DNA of 64,000 bases. Source: Bacilli bacterium (GTDB taxonomy: Bacteria > Bacillota_I > Bacilli_A > RFN20 > CAG-826). The number at the start of each line of letters is the position of its first letter. The stretch's first letter is position 1. The DNA is taken from assembly GCA_050952725.1 (NCBI GenBank), contig JBMNLN010000001.1, positions 752,108-816,107 of the forward strand, given 5' to 3'. Shown here in pieces: positions 18,245-26,253 of the stretch. A program made the translations under genes and the position numbers. The notes under the pieces were generated by a model. That model made no database searches. It saw only the letters and a list, made by a program, of their open reading frames with translations, and had not been told where the DNA came from.

Positions 18245-18319
18245 GGTTCCTTAGCCAAGTTGGTAAGGCAACTGACTGCAACTCAGTGACCGCCGGTTCA
18301 AATCCGGCAGGAACCTCCA
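18245..18319 (+). tRNA. tRNA-Cys (anticodon GCA).
   Basis: GGTTCCTTAGCCAAGTTGGTAAGGCAACTGACTGCAACTCAGTGACCGCCGGTTCAAATCCGGCAGGAACCTCCA. The anticodon loop is CTGCAAC. Confidence 0.9.
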
Positions 18320-18475: not shown

Positions 18476-19693
18476 ATGATGATAAAAAGAGACTATTATT
18501 TGAATAAACTCATATACTACAAAGATAAAGATTTAATTAAGGTAATAACTGGTATCAGAAGGGTTGGAAAATCTTTTTTGCTTTTTAATTTGTATTATGA
18601 TTACTTAATTAAATCAGGAATTAATCAATCCAATATTATAAAAATAAATCTTGAATCAGATAAAATGAAAACTTTAAGAGACCCAGTAGAATTGTCTAAA
18701 TATGTTAATTCTAAAATTAATAGTAATGATAAATATTATTTATTGATTGATGAAATTCAACATGTTAATGATTTTGAAGATGTGATTAATGGGCTAAGAG
18801 TGGATCTTAATGTTGATATCTATTTGACTGGTTCGAATTCGAAACTACTCTCTAGTGATATTAACACTAAGTTAAGAGGAAGAAGTATTGAAATTAAATT
18901 ATATCCGTTATCTTTTTTTGAGTATCACAATTATTATCAAGGAGATCTTGATGATGATTTCAAGGAATATCTTTTATATGGGGGATTACCATATTTAATC
19001 AATGAAGATGATAGCAATGGGAAAATAGCATATCTAAAGATGATTAATGAAACTGTAGTGATAAAAGATATAGTAGAAAGACATAAGATTAGAAACCCGC
19101 ATTTTTTTAATGCTGTATATGAGTTTTTGTGTTCAAATATCGGTTCATATGTCAGTGCTTATAAAATCGCTAACACATTAAAAAGCAATGGCTATAAAAC
19201 TATAACCAGTGATACTGTCAGCAATTACTTAGAGTTTTTAACTAATGCTTATTTGTTTTACAAAGTAAATCGCTATGATGTTAAAGGAAAAGCATATTTA
19301 AAAACTCAAAATAAGTATTATGCATCAGATATTGGGATGCGAAATGCCAAGATTAATTATCGGCAACTAGAAATAACCCATACATTGGAAAACATTATTT
19401 ATTTAGAACTCTTAAGAAGAGGTTACATTGTTGATATTGGGAAAAATTATAATAGTGAAATTGATTTTATCGCGAAAAATAAGCAAGATACTTATTATCT
19501 TCAAGTCAGTTACACAATAAATGACCCTAATATAAAAGAGCGCGAACTAAAAGCCTTTAAAAATTTAGCGGATGGTTATAAGAAAATTGTTTTAACAATG
19601 GATAAAGATCCATATCTTCATTTAGAAAATGGATATAAAAAGGTTAATATAATTGACTTTTTATTAAAAGAAGACATTTTAGAATTGATATAA
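18476..19693 (+). CDS. AAA_14/DUF4143-family ATPase (archaeal-ATPase-like ATP-binding protein).
   Basis: It has a Walker A motif (GIRRVGKSFLL) and a Walker B motif (YLLIDEIQ). The arrangement ...LTGSNSKLL... with a C-terminal DUF4143-like region is typical of this family. The true ATG is at 18476; the track start at 18461 is TTG. Confidence 0.6.
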   Translation: MMIKRDYYLNKLIYYKDKDLIKVITGIRRVGKSFLLFNLYYDYLIKSGINQSNIIKINLESDKMKTLRDPVELSKYVNSKINSNDKYYLLIDEIQHVNDFEDVINGLRVDLNVDIYLTGSNSKLLSSDINTKLRGRSIEIKLYPLSFFEYHNYYQGDLDDDFKEYLLYGGLPYLINEDDSNGKIAYLKMINETVVIKDIVERHKIRNPHFFNAVYEFLCSNIGSYVSAYKIANTLKSNGYKTITSDTVSNYLEFLTNAYLFYKVNRYDVKGKAYLKTQNKYYASDIGMRNAKINYRQLEITHTLENIIYLELLRRGYIVDIGKNYNSEIDFIAKNKQDTYYLQVSYTINDPNIKERELKAFKNLADGYKKIVLTMDKDPYLHLENGYKKVNIIDFLLKEDILELI

Positions 19694-20150
19694 ATTAAAA
19701 ATATTAAACAAAATTCCAATTAATTGCCAAAAAGTTCAATAGAAGTAGTTTTTCATTTTAAATTCTTCCATATTTGATTTCATTAAACATTTTTCGCGTC
19801 TGAGCTTTCATTCCCTAGGTATTAAGCACATCACAATCTGCTTTATTAATTGAGAATGAGATTTTAGGATAAGTGGTTAAATCTAATTTATCTTCAATGA
19901 TTCCTTTTTCCACGACAGACTTTGATGGTGGCTTTCATGGTATTTGCACAAAATTACATCAAATGTTTCTGGGTTTTGTGCTAGTTAAGCATGGTAGTGT
20001 CTCCTTTCTCAGTGTACTTACTAGAATTGTAGACTGCCTTTTTTGTTTGTTACCTACAAATGTGAAACGGTATCAGAAAAAATATTGAAATTATTTTTAT
20101 ACTTTTTGTGATAACATTTTGGTATAAGACAAAAGCAAAGGTGTTTGTTT

Positions 20151-21032
20151 ATGATTAAAAGAGTAGTCGATTTTACTGGTAATCAAACAATAAGATTTAT
20201 TAAAGAATTGTATGAATGCTTTGATACTGGTTATGCATTTGAGGATTTTGTAAAGGTTTATTTAGAATTCTTGGGGTTTGATGAAGTTGTAGTTACGCAA
20301 AGAGCAAAGGATGGTGGTATTGATTTAACAGCAATCAAAATTGGTATTGGAGGGCTTTCTTCCGAAAAAGGAAAAATAAACTACGAGCCAGATAAAGTAA
20401 TCTATCGAATTCAAGCCAAAAGATATAAACCAACAGGTAAAAAGATACCAATAGATGATATTCGAAAATTTAGAGGGGCAGCAGGATTTAAAAGCGGGCA
20501 AAAAGGGATATTTATAACAACTGGTAAATTTACTTCTGATGCAATTAAAGAAGCTAATGCGAAGCCAGAACAACCCATTATTTTAATTGATGGAGAAACC
20601 TTGATTAAAAGCATGCTAGATTTAAATTTAGGTTTTGTATTTATTCCAGAATTTAAGAAGGAGTTAATCAATAATTTATTGCAAAAAAAGAATATTATTT
20701 TATCAACATCGGAATATGGAAGTGAAAAAAGAAGAGACAATTTTATATCTGTTGATAAACTAATTAGTCTAAACGATATTAGGGCAAGAATAATTGGCGT
20801 TCCTCAAGAAATAATCAATGCTTTAGATGATGACTTTGATAAAATCGAAATTCAAATGGGAGATTTATCCACTAAGGAGTATAGCTACAATAAAAATCGC
20901 AAATATATTGCAGGTGTGACAAAATTCTTTAAAAAATACGGATTGATTGATGATGCTAATGTTTATCATCCTAAAAAAGTTAATTGGATGAAAGAAGGTT
21001 CAAATATCAAGATAACTATTTTAGAAGAATAA
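20151..21032 (+). CDS. Mrr-like (Mrr_cat) restriction endonuclease domain protein.
   Basis: FEDFVKVYLEFLGF ... QRAKDGGIDLTA ... IQAKRYK ... GIFITTGKFTSDA ... IILIDGETL matches the Mrr catalytic-domain pattern (D...(D/E)xK, QxK). The ATG is at 20151 with an AAGGTG RBS. Confidence 0.6.
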   Translation: MIKRVVDFTGNQTIRFIKELYECFDTGYAFEDFVKVYLEFLGFDEVVVTQRAKDGGIDLTAIKIGIGGLSSEKGKINYEPDKVIYRIQAKRYKPTGKKIPIDDIRKFRGAAGFKSGQKGIFITTGKFTSDAIKEANAKPEQPIILIDGETLIKSMLDLNLGFVFIPEFKKELINNLLQKKNIILSTSEYGSEKRRDNFISVDKLISLNDIRARIIGVPQEIINALDDDFDKIEIQMGDLSTKEYSYNKNRKYIAGVTKFFKKYGLIDDANVYHPKKVNWMKEGSNIKITILEE

Positions 21033-21907
21033 GTTTTCTGTAAAGGGTTTGTAAAAATATTACCTTAAAATAACTTCAGCAAATAGAATGATACAATTGA
21101 AGATGTTTATATATCACATGAAAACAATTTAGATAAATTGCTGATTCATGAAGTTTTTAGGCAAATTTCGATTAGGATTTTCAAATGTATCTACTCACAA
21201 ATAGCAAAATGCCGCTTAATTATAATGGCAATTATTCAAAGATACGCAAATGTCATTTATAATATCGACAAATATTGAGGATATGAATTTTTTGAGGTTG
21301 ATGTTTAAAAAGACAACTTTTAACAGAAAAACGTAATATTTTTTGGTCACGACTTGGTTCTAAAATAAAGAAGATTAGTCGTCTAAAGCATTGAATACTT
21401 TCGGAATTATAATCATATTTCCAAACTGGGAAAAGAAATCTTAAAAATTATAAAGAACGGTCGTTATGTCTTGAGTTGTTTGTCTATGCTCACATGAGAA
21501 ACTGAGCGCGATAAACCAGATAGTCTATAAAAAATGCAATTGGTGCAAAAATGGGCCACAATGAAATAAAAGGACTCTATATTCAAAAAGTCGAAATCGT
21601 TTTAAAAAATAACCCAATCTTAACCACAGCCATTTTAGACAATAATATTTGGTAAAAACAATACATAGGCAGGAAAGAAATCGGCTTTCCGCGGCTATCC
21701 AATGTTTTTTAAAGAGACATGATACATTTTCATTGGCTGTAAACCAGTATTTTTTGTATTATAAAGTTATAATTTCAATTTATTGGTTCAAATAAGATAG
21801 GGAAGTATGATTTTGTAAGAAATAAAACATATTATTCAGTTATCCGTGCAATCTAAAAACATACATAAGACTTGCATTTATTAAAAGCAAAGAAATGGAG
21901 GAATATT

Positions 21908-24199
21908 ATGACCACGTGGGATGAGTTAGTTTCAGGTGAAGAACTAGATAAAGTTTCCAAATCGAGAAGAATAAAATATAAAGAGATAAAAGTTGAAAAA
22001 GAATCAATTGCTGAGCACGAAAAAAAAGGTTGGAAAATATTTCGAAGATATAAAGATGGCTCTGCTAAAATGCGAGCCCCAAAAGAGATTGGCGATGCCT
22101 TCGAAGATGAAGTATGGACGATTTTTTATGATATGGGCTTTGAGATTATGAACAAGTCTAATGGTTTCAAATTGTCTTATTCTAAAGGAAATCCAGATTT
22201 AACTAAGCAAATCGATGTTATAGCCATTGATGACGAAGTAATACTATTAGTTGAATGTAAAGCTGCTGATAAGCCAGATACAACAGGAAATTGGAAAAAA
22301 GAACTAGAGTCCATACAAGGCTTTTTTCCGGGTTTGTGCAAAGAAATAAGACAAAAATATAAGAACAGAAAAGTAAAATATATACTAGCTACTAAGAATT
22401 ACCTTATAGGTGAGCAAGATAACAAAAGAATGGAAGAATTCAAAATCGCCAATTTTAACCATGAAGTGGTAACGTATTATGCGGAACTTGTGAAACATCT
22501 AGGCTCTGCCGCTAGATATCAGCTTCTAGGTAATCTATTTGCTAAACAACGCGTTGAAAACATGATAAAAAAAATTCCTGCTATTGAAGGAAGAATGGGG
22601 GGCTTGAAATATTATACATTTTTGATTGAGCCTGAAAAACTTTTAAAAATCTCCTACATTTTACATCGAAGCAAAGCAAATCATAAAATGATGCCAACTT
22701 ATCAAAGGTTGATCAAAAAGGATAGATTAAAGGCAATACGAAAATTTGTTAATGAGGGAGGATATTTTCCAAATTCGATAATTGTATCTATTGATACTGT
22801 TAGAAAAGAGCCAAGATTCGAGTTATTAACTTCCAAATTAGATAACAACAATAATTCGCGAGCGGGTTATCTATATTTGCCAGGGTTTTATCAATCGGTT
22901 TATATAATTGATGGTCAGCATAGGCTATATGGATATTCGGATACTAAATATGCAAACAATAATACAATTCCTGTGGTTGCGTTTTTAAATTTGAGCAAAA
23001 ATGAACAAGTTAAATTGTTTATGGACATTAATCAAAATCAAAAATCCGTTTCGAAGAGTCTCAGAAACACACTCAATGTCGATCTTTTATGGGATTCTGA
23101 AGATGCAAACGAAAGAAAGTTAGCCTTAATGTTAGGGCTTGCTCAATCATTGGGTGAAGATCCAACTTCTCCATTGTTTCAAAGAATTATCACAGGAGAG
23201 GATAAAATTACAGAAAAAAGATGTATTACAATCGATTATATTAAAGAAGCCGTTGCAAATTCATCTTTTTTAAATATTTACAAAAAGGGAAAAAATGAAA
23301 TAATTCAACACGGCACCTTCGATAAAGATGATAATGACAGAACATTAGACTTTCTACTTTCATTTTTAAAAAAAAGTTTAAAACTAATGTCTGAATTCCT
23401 ACAAGAGGAATGGGAAAAGGGAAGTTCTGGATATATAACTATTAATAACACGATGTATGGAATCATTAAAATCATTGATGACATCGTAAATATGACTTTG
23501 AAAAAAGAAAAAAAACAAATTGTTGATAACGCAGATGAGTTCTATAAAAAGTGTGAGCCATTACTTTATAAATTTATAGAAACACTATCATCTCTTGATT
23601 CTGATTCAGTTAAGACAATCAAGGAAGCCAAAGGCGGTGCTGCTAAGAAAATATCTTGGCGCACACTACAAGTTGCGTTTTACAAAAAAGAACCTTGTTT
23701 TACCAACCCTGAATTAGAGCAATATATAATCGAAAATTGCACTGATAATAACCCAGATGCTTCTGAGTATTTATTTCAGATTGAGATGTACTTGAAGGGG
23801 CATTTTAAAGAACAACTAGAAAAAAATAATGACTGGATGAACAATATGATACCTGAATCGTTGACCAATCAACTAATATCCAAAAAAGCAATTGAAGAAA
23901 ATAATAGAAAAAAAATGGATAATTATACAGAAGTAGATGTTTGGGATTTTATTTCCTTTGATGAAATCAAACAGATTGCGACTTATAAAACAAATTGGTC
24001 GGATTTTTGCTCGACAATATTATCTTCTTCAAAAATCAAATCCACTAAAGTTGATGCGATTACATGGCTAAGTTCCTTCTCGAGATACAAATCCAAAATC
24101 ACGACAGAAAAGAATATTTTAACAAGCGAACTAAAGGATATTCGTGATATTTATAATATGTTTTTCTTAAATCAGATTGGAGATGAGAAAAAAACATGA
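21908..24199 (+). CDS. DGQHR-domain (DndB-like, ParB/Srx fold) protein fused to an N-terminal PD-(D/E)xK nuclease-like domain.
   Basis: The YIIDGQHRLYGYSD motif sits in a ParB-like region (FPNSIIVSID...). The N-terminal segment IDVIAIDDEVILLVECKAADK looks like a PD-(D/E)xK motif. A GGAGG RBS lies 7 nt upstream of the ATG at 21908. The stop overlaps the MTase start. Confidence 0.65.
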   Translation: MTTWDELVSGEELDKVSKSRRIKYKEIKVEKESIAEHEKKGWKIFRRYKDGSAKMRAPKEIGDAFEDEVWTIFYDMGFEIMNKSNGFKLSYSKGNPDLTKQIDVIAIDDEVILLVECKAADKPDTTGNWKKELESIQGFFPGLCKEIRQKYKNRKVKYILATKNYLIGEQDNKRMEEFKIANFNHEVVTYYAELVKHLGSAARYQLLGNLFAKQRVENMIKKIPAIEGRMGGLKYYTFLIEPEKLLKISYILHRSKANHKMMPTYQRLIKKDRLKAIRKFVNEGGYFPNSIIVSIDTVRKEPRFELLTSKLDNNNNSRAGYLYLPGFYQSVYIIDGQHRLYGYSDTKYANNNTIPVVAFLNLSKNEQVKLFMDINQNQKSVSKSLRNTLNVDLLWDSEDANERKLALMLGLAQSLGEDPTSPLFQRIITGEDKITEKRCITIDYIKEAVANSSFLNIYKKGKNEIIQHGTFDKDDNDRTLDFLLSFLKKSLKLMSEFLQEEWEKGSSGYITINNTMYGIIKIIDDIVNMTLKKEKKQIVDNADEFYKKCEPLLYKFIETLSSLDSDSVKTIKEAKGGAAKKISWRTLQVAFYKKEPCFTNPELEQYIIENCTDNNPDASEYLFQIEMYLKGHFKEQLEKNNDWMNNMIPESLTNQLISKKAIEENNRKKMDNYTEVDVWDFISFDEIKQIATYKTNWSDFCSTILSSSKIKSTKVDAITWLSSFSRYKSKITTEKNILTSELKDIRDIYNMFFLNQIGDEKKT

Positions 24200-25035
24200 A
24201 ACCTGTTTTAAAATGGGCAGGAGGAAAAAGATTACTAATTCCAGAAATTGCTAAATACATAAATAAACAAAAAATGGAAGAAAAAGGTCATCGATATTTT
24301 GAGCCTTTTGTCGGTGGTGGTGCTGTTTGTTTTCATTTAAAAATAAAAGATTCAGTGATAAATGACATTAATACGGAATTAATAAATGTATACACACAAA
24401 TTAGAGATAATCCAACAGAATTAATTAAAAAATTGAAAGAACACAAAAATAAATACAGTTCTGAATATTATGAAAAGATTAGAGTTTTGGACAGAGAACC
24501 TGACTTTTCCTCAAAACCTGCCGTATTAAGAGCGGCAAGATTTATCTTTTTAAATAAAACCTGTTATAACGGATTATATAGAGTTAATTCATTCGGACAT
24601 TTTAATGTTCCTGAAGGTAAATATAAAAATCCTGATATCGTTTCGGAAAACAATATAAAAAAACTTAGCAAATTTTTAAATGAAAAAAATATCTCTATCA
24701 GAAATGTTGATTTTGAAGAGAGTGTAAGAGATGCAAAGGCGGGCGATGTTGTCTATTTTGATCCTCCTTATGACTATGAATATGAAGGTTTTAATGGATA
24801 TAATGTTGATGCTTTTGATCGAGAAAATTTAAAGAGATTAAAACGAGTCGCGGACGATTTAACTAATCGTGGATGCAAAGTTATTATTAGTAATAACAAT
24901 ACTAAGTTTGTCAATGACTTGTTTGACTCAGAAAATTATACAATTGAATATGTGGAAGCCAATAGATTTATTAATTGTGACGGTAAAGGAAGAAAGAAAG
25001 TAAGAGAGGTTATTATTTATGGAGAAAAAAAATAA
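24196..25035 (+). CDS. Dam-family (D12 class) DNA N6-adenine methyltransferase.
   Basis: LKWAGGKRLL (motif X), FEPFVGGGAV (motif I) and YFDPPYD (motif IV, DPPY) are present. There is an ATGA overlap with the upstream gene. Confidence 0.8.
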   Translation: MKPVLKWAGGKRLLIPEIAKYINKQKMEEKGHRYFEPFVGGGAVCFHLKIKDSVINDINTELINVYTQIRDNPTELIKKLKEHKNKYSSEYYEKIRVLDREPDFSSKPAVLRAARFIFLNKTCYNGLYRVNSFGHFNVPEGKYKNPDIVSENNIKKLSKFLNEKNISIRNVDFEESVRDAKAGDVVYFDPPYDYEYEGFNGYNVDAFDRENLKRLKRVADDLTNRGCKVIISNNNTKFVNDLFDSENYTIEYVEANRFINCDGKGRKKVREVIIYGEKK

Positions 25036-25477
25036 AATTCCCTTTCCACAGGCTAATGATTTTGAAAAAGTCATCATGATATTAAATATTAATAATGAGG
25101 CCAATTTGAAAAAAAAATCTGTTATTTCAATGATTTTGGGAGATGTTGAATATAGACAAGTACAATATTACGTTTCTGCGTTAATATATTTGGGATTAGC
25201 AACAAAAGAAAAAACTTTTTCTGAAAAAGGGAAATATATTCGGACACTAGGTTATTCGGAGCAAATAATAGAGTTAGCAAAGCTTATTGTTTCAAAAGAT
25301 GTGTTTGGCACAGCCTATTTTACGGAACAATTTTTAAAAATTAAACTTGATGTTGATGATGTTGTCCAAATAATGAAAATATATGTTGACTTTGATAGTA
25401 ATTCAACATACAAGCGCCGAGCCCAAACCGTAATAAGTTGGTTAGAGTGGATTAATAATAAAAAGAAAGATTTATGA
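25019..25477 (+). CDS. Hypothetical small protein of 152 aa in the island.
   Basis: The ORF overlaps the MTase 3' end by 17 nt and is AT-rich. No motif is recognised. Confidence 0.35.
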   Translation: MEKKNKIPFPQANDFEKVIMILNINNEANLKKKSVISMILGDVEYRQVQYYVSALIYLGLATKEKTFSEKGKYIRTLGYSEQIIELAKLIVSKDVFGTAYFTEQFLKIKLDVDDVVQIMKIYVDFDSNSTYKRRAQTVISWLEWINNKKKDL

Positions 25478-25602: not shown

Positions 25603-25679
25603 GCGCCGATAGCTCAACTGGATAGAGTGCCAGACTACGAATCTGGAGGTTGCGAGTTCGATTCTTGCTCGGCGCGCCA
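25603..25679 (+). tRNA. tRNA-Arg (anticodon ACG).
   Basis: GCGCCGATAGCTCAACTGGATAGAGTGCCAGACTACGAATCTGG...TCGGCGCGCCA. Confidence 0.9.
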
Positions 25680-25689
25680 TGACTTTTTC

Positions 25690-25765
<76 letters not shown>

Positions 25766-25820
25766 TGATTGTTCTCAACCTTTCCCCTTGATCTTATCCT
25801 AATATCAAATGGGAATTCTC

Positions 25821-25896
25821 GGGGCCATAGTTCAGTTGGGAGAACGCCTGCTTTGCAAGCAGGAGGTCAGGGGTTCGAGCCCCCTTGGCTCCACCA
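25821..25896 (+). tRNA. tRNA-Ala (anticodon TGC).
   Basis: GGGGCCATAGTTCAGTTGGGAGAACGCCTGCTTTGCAAGCAGG...GGCTCCACCA, with a G3:U70-type acceptor. Confidence 0.9.
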
Positions 25897-25903
25897 GTAA
25901 GAT

Positions 25904-25978
25904 GGCTGTGTAGCTCAGCGGTAGAGCGTCCGGTTCATACCCGGCAGGTCGGCGGTTCAAATCCGCCCGCAGCTACCA
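25904..25978 (+). tRNA. tRNA-Met, elongator (anticodon CAT).
   Basis: GGCTGTGTAGCTCAGCGGTAGAGCGTCCGGTTCATACCCGG... closely resembles Bacillus elongator tRNA-Met. Confidence 0.8.
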
Positions 25979-26079
25979 TGGAAACGAAATAGTCGCTGTT
26001 GATCCAGTGACTTTTTTGTTGCTTAGGGTAGGTATTTGTTTAAATAAATATCTATTTAATGTATTATATTTATGCTTGT

Positions 26080-26155
26080 GGACCCTTAGCTCAATGGTTA
26101 GAGCGACCGGCTCATAACCGGTTGGTTTCGGGTTCAAGTCCTGAAGGGTCCACCA
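26080..26155 (+). tRNA. tRNA-Ile2 (CAT anticodon, lysidine-type), less likely Met.
   Basis: GGACCCTTAGCTCAATGGTTAGAGCGACCGGCTCATAACCGG...AGGGTCCACCA resembles ileX-type tRNA-Ile(LAU), which reads GGCCCCTTAGCTCAGTGGTTAGAGC...CTCATAA.... Confidence 0.7.
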
Positions 26156-26162
26156 TGCTTTT

Positions 26163-26253
26163 GGAAGCATACCCAAGTGGTTGAAGGGGTCGGTCTTGAA
26201 AACCGATAGGGGGTGTGAGCCCTGCTAGAGTTCGAATCTCTATGCTTCCGCCA
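26163..26253 (+). tRNA. tRNA-Ser (anticodon TGA).
   Basis: GGAAGCATACCCAAGTGGTTGAAGGGGTCGGTCTTGAAAACCGA... has a long variable arm. Confidence 0.9.

Follow-up and report, generated by a model that had tools for sequence, protein, structure and literature searches.

The window analysed here, a stretch of 64,000 nucleotides from a Bacilli bacterium (contig JBMNLN010000001.1, positions 752,108 to 816,107), contains a low-GC island which begins just past a tRNA-Cys gene (18245-18319) and extends up to a tRNA-Arg gene (25603). The island holds five genes, all on the + strand: an AAA_14 + DUF4143 ATPase, an Mrr_cat protein, a DGQHR protein, a D12 adenine methyltransferase and a DUF7226 protein. Our main subject is the second of these, a predicted nuclease which we call Mrr-B3, and the family it belongs to. 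Its features are the following (aa, amino acids; pLDDT, predicted local distance difference test score; AF2, AlphaFold2):

20151..21032, + strand: Mrr-B3 nuclease, 293 aa, with an Mrr/MspJI-type N-terminal domain, a disordered linker and a C-terminal B3-like domain
20229..20615, + strand: Mrr_cat PD-(D/E)xK catalytic domain, aa 29-157 (Pfam PF04471, E=6.8e-24)
20322-20324, 20412-20414 and 20418-20420, + strand: catalytic residues D58, Q88 and K90 of an invariant D...QxK motif
20688..20732, + strand: variable disordered linker, aa 180-194 (pLDDT <50; length and sequence vary in alignment A1)
20742..21029, + strand: B3-like pseudobarrel domain, aa 198-293 (AF2 and Foldseek)
20772-20792, + strand: invariant NDIRARI motif (alignment of the family)

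The public gene call starts at the ATG at 20151, the list of open reading frames (ORFs) extends the gene to a TTG at 20145, and a 100% identical protein is on record (P0001). A preliminary description of this DNA, made from the letters alone, had placed an AAA_14 + DUF4143 ATPase and an Mrr_cat protein here, with the nuclease about 450 bp downstream of the ATPase. Both are found where it put them: the Pfam scan returned AAA_14 at E=3.6e-33, DUF4143 at E=4.8e-16 and Mrr_cat at the value given above, and the gap from the ATPase stop to the nuclease is 451 bp when counted to the TTG and 457 bp when counted to the ATG. Neither gene is pseudogenised. The Walker motifs of the ATPase and residues D58, Q88 and K90 of the nuclease are intact, and the nuclease gene has neither a frameshift nor an internal stop.

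The catalytic residues D58, Q88 and K90 are invariant in 36 members of the family. A search for homologues of the nuclease returned about 1,980 proteins, and because the best 120 are nearly all full-length (about 270-295 aa, covering 89-99% of the query), the C-terminal half is a fixed part of the architecture. The closest solved relatives of the catalytic domain are MspJI (4f0p; Foldseek E 2.6e-6, profile-versus-PDB E 3.5e-10) and AspBHI (1e-5), with the MspJI match confined to the catalytic domain (MspJI chain residues 324-415). The mREase_IV and PDC-S02 models of PADLOC likewise align to the nuclease through their C-terminal catalytic part only: the best PDC-S02 match, to PDLC04806 (1.3e-19), places aa 31-158 on profile positions 189-301 of 324, so it is not full-length, and the domain order differs. 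The Pfam scan found no Mrr_N match in the nuclease.

The C-terminal half had been described as uncharacterised, and about 138 C-terminal residues are indeed left uncovered by the Pfam, NCBIfam and PADLOC models; the conserved part is about 100 aa long. Structure prediction gives it a B3-like fold. In the AF2 model of the full-length protein (pLDDT 82.7) the disordered linker lies between two confidently modelled domains, and a domain-only model of the C-terminal 101 residues reached a pLDDT of 91 and a predicted TM-score (pTM) of 0.79. A Foldseek search of the latter against the PDB placed plant B3 domains in all of the top three positions (1yel, 6fas and 6j9a, representing At1g16640 and VAL1-B3 bound to DNA), with a TM-score of about 0.6 and a probability of at least 0.99 over the whole length, and all remaining matches had a probability of 0.18 or less. 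Sequence comparison gave no such relatives: the domain had no Pfam match even at E up to 10, and a sequence-profile search of the PDB returned designed proteins only. Within the family the domain carries the signature (I/V)(S/T)xNDIRARI..(V/I/L)P...GV(T/S)...W, in which N, D, I, R, A, I, P and W are invariant. This signature presumably resembles the plant B3 pattern K-x-L-T-x-SD...R-L-x-I-P, a resemblance that we take as a lead only.

The genomic company of the family was surveyed with one genome per species, giving 80 loci in which ORFs were called and searched with iterated hidden Markov models. The hosts are Lachnospiraceae and other Clostridia, Bacilli/Tenericutes, Fusobacterium, Negativicutes, some Proteobacteria, Saccharibacteria and others, and the cultured ones include Roseburia hominis, Anaerovibrio lipolyticus and Fusobacterium vincentii. 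A first look-up had returned a 47%-identical homologue in a cassette made up of a D12 methyltransferase, an N6_N4 methyltransferase, the Mrr-like gene and DpnII, with overlapping gene ends. Across the survey, a D12 methyltransferase lies within 5 kb of the nuclease gene in 50/80 loci, an N6_N4 methyltransferase in 47/80, and one or other of these adenine methyltransferases in 59/80. A DpnII-type endonuclease is found within the same distance in 47/80 loci, and in 43/80 it is directly downstream on the same strand. The genes are tightly packed, with a median same-strand intergenic gap of 7-8 nt, and the partners keep close to the nuclease: their density falls from 14-17 per 100 kb in the 2.5 kb nearest the gene to 0-0.7 per 100 kb at distances of 2.5-10 kb. 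Genes of this family are as a rule built into GATC restriction-modification (R-M) operons of the Dam/DpnII type.

The link to D12 is kept where the endonuclease is swapped for an AlwI-, TdeIII-, DUF6997/7226- or PDDEXK_11-type one, in the following arrangements (HTH, helix-turn-helix gene):

L035, L040 and L043: HTH - Mrr-B3 - D12 - AlwI-family
L056 and L057: HTH - Mrr-B3 - D12 - TdeIII-family
L007: Mrr-B3 - Dam - DUF6996/6997/7226 protein
L049 and L067: D12 - Mrr-B3 - PDDEXK_11 - N6_N4

In a further locus, L008, Mrr-B3 is the sole nuclease detected beside two cassette methylases. The D12 proteins of L008, L049, L067 and L082 are 84-92% identical to those of DpnII cassettes, and these loci are therefore GATC cassettes as well. 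The D12 proteins linked to AlwI and TdeIII share no more than about 45% identity with any cassette D12 and may have another specificity.

Two further observations concern these loci. The protein encoded directly upstream of Mrr-B3 in L035 (6776-7447) and L056 (670-1188) is of the HTH_3 (Cro/C1) type; at 172-223 aa it is roughly double the normal size of a controller (C) protein, whose place it takes. At L003 (9707-14559) the four-gene DpnII/Mrr-B3 cassette is followed by an HSDR_N-like protein of 349 aa, an extra N6_N4 methylase and two SLFN-group-3-type helicase genes, which suggests a larger composite defence locus.

The closest relative of the window's nuclease (P0002) shares 64% protein identity, and the DNA homology between the two loci spans only 20131-21035, which argues that the nuclease gene moves independently of the ATPase. 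A search of a plasmid collection gave a single match, to an unannotated Fusobacterium chromosome, and a phage collection gave one unannotated 5-kb contig. As a combination of an Mrr-type cutter and a B3-like DNA reader the family is undescribed; no description of an Mrr-like gene in dpnM/dpnA cassettes or of an Mrr-B3 fusion was found in the searchable literature, the scope of which leaves out most subscription journals. We are highly confident of a joint claim, namely that the C-terminal domain is B3-like, that the family forms part of GATC cassettes and that the nuclease and its neighbouring ATPase, discussed below, are not a pair.

A profile of the B3-like domain was also searched against 1.84 billion representative sequences. 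It matched 146 clusters, mostly of the Mrr-B3 architecture or fragments of it, and a small number of fusions to other scaffolds. Five McrB-type AAA_5 proteins carry the domain N-terminally (P0346, P0362, P0368, P0369 and P0378; loci L101, L102 and L106-L111), all five are followed by McrC, and one McrB combines the domain with an EVE domain. In a GmrSD protein (P0334, L103) the domain is C-terminal, and further fusions join it to a PLD nuclease (P0317), which has the architecture of BfiI and NgoAVII, and to an N6_Mtase-HTH fragment (P0336). All of the non-Mrr fusions retain the signature NDφRARI...P...GV(T/S)...W. The alignment of P0346 with close McrB homologues spans only about 85% of P0346, which would fit a swapped N-terminal reader domain.

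What the nuclease does in these cassettes can be approached from its company and its fold. The reading we prefer, to which we give slightly less than an even chance, is that Mrr-B3 is an accessory nuclease acting against unmethylated GATC and restrained by Dam methylation; we infer both the GATC target and the sensitivity to methylation. The B3-like domain would dock at unmethylated GATC-containing sites and the tethered Mrr domain would cut the DNA nearby, while N6-methylation of GATC by the Dam-class methylase would shield the DNA of the host. Mrr-B3 would thus add to the main endonuclease of the system a second restriction nuclease of different build, as a backup. Support comes from the operonic and partner-specific link to adenine methylases, which persists through swaps of the endonuclease, and from the DpnM-like methylase of the window. 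GATC is the sole common denominator of the partner systems. The B3-like domains of EcoRII, BfiI, UbaLAI and NgoAVII/CglI read an unmodified specific sequence within R-M systems (NgoAVII/CglI: PMC4267654, PMC4267653), LlaJI.R1 does the same with a B3 domain on an McrB scaffold (PMC7680126), and B3-fold sensor domains have been classed as likely readers of unmodified DNA (PMC12065111). The invariant polar NDIRARI motif would fit one common recognition feature. The Mrr-B3 gene is placed after the methylases or, as in L035 and L056, after an HTH gene, like toxic endonuclease genes and endonuclease genes controlled by C proteins.

Since the company of a Dam-class methylase is the family rule, Mrr-B3 is predicted to tolerate GATC methylation, very probably to depend on it, and to work together with adenine methylation instead of against it. 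For the copies that lie in cassettes we exclude a reader of G(m6A)TC itself, as this would be suicidal. The preliminary description had suggested that an Mrr-type enzyme restricts modified DNA, and that its position next to an adenine methyltransferase could be antagonistic or layered. The first suggestion probably does not carry over to this protein, which lacks Mrr_N and has instead a B3-like domain, a fold that reads unmodified sequence in every characterised restriction enzyme. An antagonistic arrangement is contradicted by the operon-tight association with D12 and DpnII, and a layered one is the principal alternative to our reading.

That alternative has Mrr-B3 as a modification-dependent, Dam-tolerant Type IV enzyme, in which the B3-like domain is a new type of reader for some modification other than the host's G(m6A)TC; phage hypermodified bases, cytosine modification and non-GATC adenine methylation are candidate ligands. 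The nuclease would travel with GATC cassettes as a second layer against modified phages that escape DpnII-type cleavage. We consider this possible but doubtful. It draws on the catalytic domain, which is nearest to MspJI and AspBHI and is matched by the mREase_IV models, and on the domain's presence in the reader position of the five McrB-McrC pairs and of GmrSD, with no methylases nearby. About 20% of the family is solitary with intact motifs, and the closest relative of the window's nuclease is solitary. The mrr gene of E. coli K-12, a neighbour of the hsd Type I genes, ignores Dam sites and offers a precedent for such an arrangement. Against this, all characterised B3-fold domains read unmodified sequence, and none is known for a modified base. 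A generic second layer should also join many types of R-M system, whereas the recurrent partners are only D12 and N6_N4 methylases and DpnII, and even near the solitary copies no other class of methylase recurs. The overlapping gene ends in operons that run from methylase to endonuclease, found in several gene orders, suggest functional integration over co-travel.

Several of the observations that favour a Type IV enzyme, and others besides, weigh against an accessory nuclease directed at unmethylated GATC. The nearest solved relatives of the catalytic domain, MspJI and AspBHI, are modification-dependent, and a second nuclease which shares the specificity of DpnII looks redundant. Orphan methylation-sensitive endonucleases would be expected to be rare, yet solitary copies exist: 19/80 loci have no methyltransferase or DpnII within 5 kb, contig ends account for only about five of these, and the copies have intact motifs. 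The other partner-less loci lie in mixed contexts (Type I R-M with Abi, KAP NTPases, transposases, housekeeping genes), and several solitary copies are in Firmicutes, where Dam is not a core gene. The closest relative, P0002, has no methylase within 3.6 kb downstream. In the window itself Mrr-B3 is not operonic with Dam, from whose module an 875-bp spacer separates it, and where that module of three genes recurs, in L097 and L098, it does so without an Mrr-B3 gene (and without the ATPase). For the B3 assignment we rely on a predicted structure, whose Foldseek E-values are modest (3e-3 to 7e-2). Finally, no methylase is present in the 4-18 kb of flanking sequence available for the five McrB-B3 genes, and the GmrSD gene, itself part of a defence island, has no cognate methylase next to it; carriers of this methylase-free kind have the layout of modification-dependent Type IV systems.

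It is also conceivable, though we think it unlikely, that the B3-like domain is a low-specificity DNA anchor and that Mrr-B3 degrades or processes DNA after DpnII-type cuts, so preventing its repair, or regulates the cassette. Mrr-B3 is nearly always found beside another endonuclease and does not replace one, and the domain has been joined to very different motors and nucleases, once beside EVE, a dedicated reader of modified bases, which would fit generic DNA binding. The invariant polar NDIRARI motif suggests specific readout instead, solitary intact copies exist, Mrr-B3 is the only nuclease detected in L008, and the conserved catalytic residues speak against a purely regulatory role.

If the accessory nuclease that we favour is considered together with the fusions to other scaffolds, a broader proposal can be made: the NDIRARI B3-like domain could be an unrecognised portable sensor of the methylation state of DNA, recruited by Mrr_cat, McrB, GmrSD and PLD scaffolds, and Mrr-B3 an overlooked fourth component of DpnII-type cassettes. 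We put this forward tentatively, as something that may well prove otherwise. The simplest choice of ligand for such a sensor would be unmethylated versus N6-methylated GATC.

The gene upstream of the nuclease encodes an ATPase with the following features:

18476..19693, + strand: AAA_14 + DUF4143 ATPase, 405 aa, a single-gene member of PADLOC PDC-S01 (Pfam and PADLOC)
18551..18574, + strand: Walker A, GIRRVGKS, aa 26-33 (G26, G31, K32 and S33 invariant in alignment A3)
18749..18760, + strand: Walker B, DEIQ (in LLIDEIQ), aa 92-95 (D92, E93, I94 and Q95 invariant in A3)
19457..19513, + strand: nuclease-like motif of the DUF4143 region, EIDF...YLQVSY (E328, D330, Q343 and V344 invariant in A3)

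An alternative start at a TTG (18461) gives a 410-aa ORF, in the numbering of which AAA_14 covers aa 25-155 and DUF4143 aa 202-351. The protein aligns with the PADLOC model PDLC04787 (PDC-S01) at E=1.9e-141, aa 4-404 on profile positions 4-409 of 412. PDC-S01 was proposed as a single-gene candidate from 'guilt by embedding', in which an ATPase is fused to a domain of the PD-(D/E)xK superfamily, and is the fourth commonest predicted defence in prokaryotes (PMC12988326); DUF4143 has been assigned to PD-(D/E)XK (PMC3424549). No experimental validation of PDC-S01 is reported in the literature that we found (PMC12988326). In the subfamily of the window's protein the DUF4143 motif (aa 328-346) reads E...EIDF...Q-V-(S/A)-Y, which is conserved among the homologues. 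Because the canonical (D/E)-x-K lysine is absent from it, this nuclease-like domain may be catalytically altered or inactive. Homologues of the ATPase number more than 7,800 at least (E <=1e-10), and a protein identical to it is on record in a metagenome-assembled genome of an uncultured Bacilli. As judged from its sequence, the ATPase is a self-contained single-gene candidate defence protein and an ordinary member of PDC-S01.

The ATPase and the nuclease are adjacent and on the same strand at the left end of the island, and the preliminary description had implied a pairing. They could in principle form a two-component ATP-dependent enzyme like CglI/NgoAVII, with the Dam of the island as its methylase, as R.NgoAVII and R.CglI are likewise nucleases with a C-terminal B3-like domain that need a separate ATPase (PMC4267654, PMC4267653). 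Co-occurrence led us to reject such a functional pair, and we regard it as very improbable. A genuine AAA_14 neighbour is present in 0/80 loci of the nuclease family (there is one 75-aa AAA_14 fragment only). The relatives of the ATPase at 90% and 75% identity are solitary among housekeeping genes, in one case hydrogenase/transporter genes and in the other YjdM/peroxiredoxin genes, with no nuclease or R-M gene near them. The ATPase belongs to AAA_14 and has its own nuclease-like domain, and is not an SF2/DEAD helicase. The two genes are moreover separated by the 457-bp spacer, and the DNA homology to the closest nuclease relative is limited to the nuclease side.

Downstream of the nuclease the island contains a further unit, a trio of genes that includes the methylase:

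21908..24199, + strand: 763-aa fusion of a PD-(D/E)xK (NERD-like) domain and a DGQHR (DndB/ParB-like) domain (TIGR03187 1.7e-46; Pfam DndB 9.8e-18, NERD 0.0036)
24196..25035, + strand: DpnM-type D12 N6-adenine methyltransferase (Pfam MethyltransfD12 6.9e-59; TIGR00571 dam 2.5e-77)
25019..25477, + strand: DUF7226 protein, 152 aa, third gene of the trio (Pfam PF23871 3.1e-21)

The gene of the DGQHR protein overlaps the start of Dam by 4 nt. The N-terminal motif of its product, DVIAIDDEV.LL.ECK, is a canonical D...ExK motif conserved in L097 and L098, and the fusion is probably the restriction component of the trio. The best solved relative of the methylase is M1.DpnII (2DPM, E=3e-65), compared with 4e-30 for E. 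coli Dam, and we predict that it is GATC-specific. Mrr-B3 lies 3.2 kb upstream of it. The DUF7226 protein matches the C-terminal part of the PADLOC REase_II model PDLC03513 and is another Dam-associated domain. At L007 (11880-13151), after the Dam and Mrr-B3 genes, DUF7226 forms the C-terminal end of a DUF6996+DUF6997+DUF7226 protein of 423 aa (PDLC03513).

The trio, whose gene ends overlap, recurs at 68-70% identity in two metagenomic contigs (L098 8001-11562 and L097 6690-9046), where the chromosomal contexts are unrelated. It may represent an R-M-like system for GATC, not described so far, with a ParB-like DGQHR-fusion nuclease. A 282-aa ORF upstream of the trio in L097 was considered as a homologue of Mrr-B3 and rejected, being a DegV protein. 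The Pfam scan found neither a DpnII (PF04556) endonuclease nor a DpnA-like N6_N4 methyltransferase in the island of the window.

The island as a whole is real: GC is 28-33% within it and about 44% in the flanks, falling from about 0.42 to 0.28-0.33 immediately past tRNA-Cys, and it lies between tRNA genes. Its borders and spacers are:

18245..18319, + strand: tRNA-Cys (GCA), left island boundary (ARAGORN; Rfam tRNA 66.7 bits)
19694..20150, no strand: AT-rich non-coding spacer of 457 bp which contains a doubtful 71-aa ORF (no Rfam match, no gene remnant by tblastn)
21033..21907, no strand: non-coding spacer of 875 bp between the nuclease and the methylase module (ORFs <50 aa only, no Rfam match)
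25603..25679, + strand: tRNA-Arg (ACG), first of a tRNA cluster and right island boundary (ARAGORN, Rfam)

The cluster on the right (25603-26253) consists of six tRNA genes: Arg, Pro, Ala, Met, Met and Ser. No integrase, recombinase or flanking direct repeats were found in the island. Candidate att-type repeats at its ends were rejected as AT-rich chance repeats, and the 3' end of tRNA-Cys has no att-like copy at the right boundary.

We also considered whether the two spacers are decayed cassette genes (DpnII or methyltransferases) and rejected this, as tblastn with all 1,207 neighbour ORFs gave no match there. Neither spacer matches an Rfam family or is conserved with the locus of the closest nuclease relative or with the trio loci: homology to the former begins at 20131, and the 875-bp spacer shares no homology with what precedes the trio in L097 and L098, the match to these loci starting at 21908. 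The 71-aa ORF (19873-20088) is probably not a real gene, as had been suspected; this is a reasonable but unproven view. The ORF has no family match in four libraries, is uncalled in the public annotation of the identical contig, and shuffling the 451-bp spacer yields an ORF of 71 aa or more in 5% of cases. The island is made up of three units that are separately mobile, namely the PDC-S01 ATPase, the Mrr-B3 nuclease and the DGQHR-Dam-DUF7226 trio, and in itself is an ordinary defence mosaic in which the adjacency of ATPase and nuclease is coincidental.

The frequency of GATC was compared with a Markov expectation, giving observed/expected ratios of 0.54 for the window and 0.30 for the island. 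We rejected this depletion as a sign of GATC-directed restriction. Across the window (1-64000) ACGT (0.54), AGCT (0.50) and GTAC (0.58) are, like GATC, about two-fold under-represented, so the depletion of GATC is unspecific. AATT, ATAT, CTAG and TTAA have ratios of about 1.0. The under-representation of palindromes hints at past exposure to several Type II systems.

The wider interest of the nuclease is that it points to an overlooked, widespread component of GATC cassettes and to an undescribed DNA-reader domain, both predicted. GATC systems of the Dam/DpnII/MboI type are among the commonest and best-studied R-M systems and are a major barrier to the genetics of gut anaerobes and Fusobacterium. 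With the GATC cassettes of many species carrying an extra conserved nuclease of new architecture, models of restriction, phage escape and transformation bypass would be incomplete. Were the B3-like domain a portable sensor of methylation state, common R-M systems across gut Firmicutes, Fusobacteria and others would gain a second nuclease with a different cleavage mode. The domain, which is invisible to Pfam and common to McrB, GmrSD and PLD nucleases, is also a compact target in the search for new DNA-reading specificities. For Mrr-B3, the annotation 'Mrr, restricts methylated DNA' is probably wrong.

Among known systems the cassettes themselves are closest to those of the DpnII/MboI type (dpnM, dpnA, dpnB): most loci of the Mrr-B3 family hold D12, N6_N4 and DpnII, and the methyltransferase of the window is DpnM-like. 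The classical pneumococcal DpnII cassette has three genes, none of them Mrr-like. The window departs from it in another way, having no dpnA and no dpnB and a Dam flanked by the DGQHR-nuclease fusion and DUF7226. The GATC system SsuDAT1I of Streptococcus suis comprises two methylases and two endonucleases, and both endonucleases are DpnII-like. The ATPase of the window is typical of PDC-S01 save for the Q-V-S/A of its subfamily in place of (D/E)-x-K, and as an AAA_14 protein it differs from the SF2/DEAD-type ATPase which adjoins the B3-bearing nuclease in CglI and NgoAVII.

E. coli Mrr and the MspJI family share Mrr_cat and the D...QxK motif with Mrr-B3, which has neither the Mrr_N winged helix of the former nor the SRA-like reader of the latter. 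The catalytic domain is N-terminal in Mrr-B3 and C-terminal in both E. coli Mrr and MspJI, and whereas E. coli Mrr stands alone, the Mrr-B3 family is embedded in methylase-endonuclease operons.

By analogy, Mrr-B3 would work most like the B3-bearing enzymes EcoRII, BfiI, NgoAVII and LlaJI.R1, from all of which it differs in being an extra gene in cassettes that already hold an endonuclease. EcoRII, BfiI and UbaLAI (Type IIE/IIS) similarly link a B3-fold reader to a separate nuclease domain and are encoded beside a protecting methyltransferase. For Mrr-B3 the picture is mixed: 59/80 loci, and the island of the window, have an adenine methyltransferase, 19/80 loci are solitary, and the McrB and GmrSD fusions of the domain lack methylases. 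Their nuclease domains are of other types, PLD in BfiI and EcoRII-C-type PD-(D/E)xK in EcoRII and UbaLAI, compared with the Mrr/MspJI type (D...QxK) of Mrr-B3, and in EcoRII the order of the domains is reversed. The B3-like domain of Mrr-B3 has no detectable sequence similarity to those of the three enzymes or of NgoAVII and LlaJI.R1, and Foldseek matched it to plant B3 and not to EcoRII-N or BfiI-C. LlaJI.R1, an McrB-like GTPase with an N-terminal B3 domain, has adjacent methylases, which the McrB-B3 fusions found here do not, and it acts as a GTPase motor with McrC where Mrr-B3 has an Mrr nuclease. In it a B3 domain replaces the modified-base reader on a Type IV scaffold, and the result is a sequence-specific, methylase-protected enzyme (PMC7680126).

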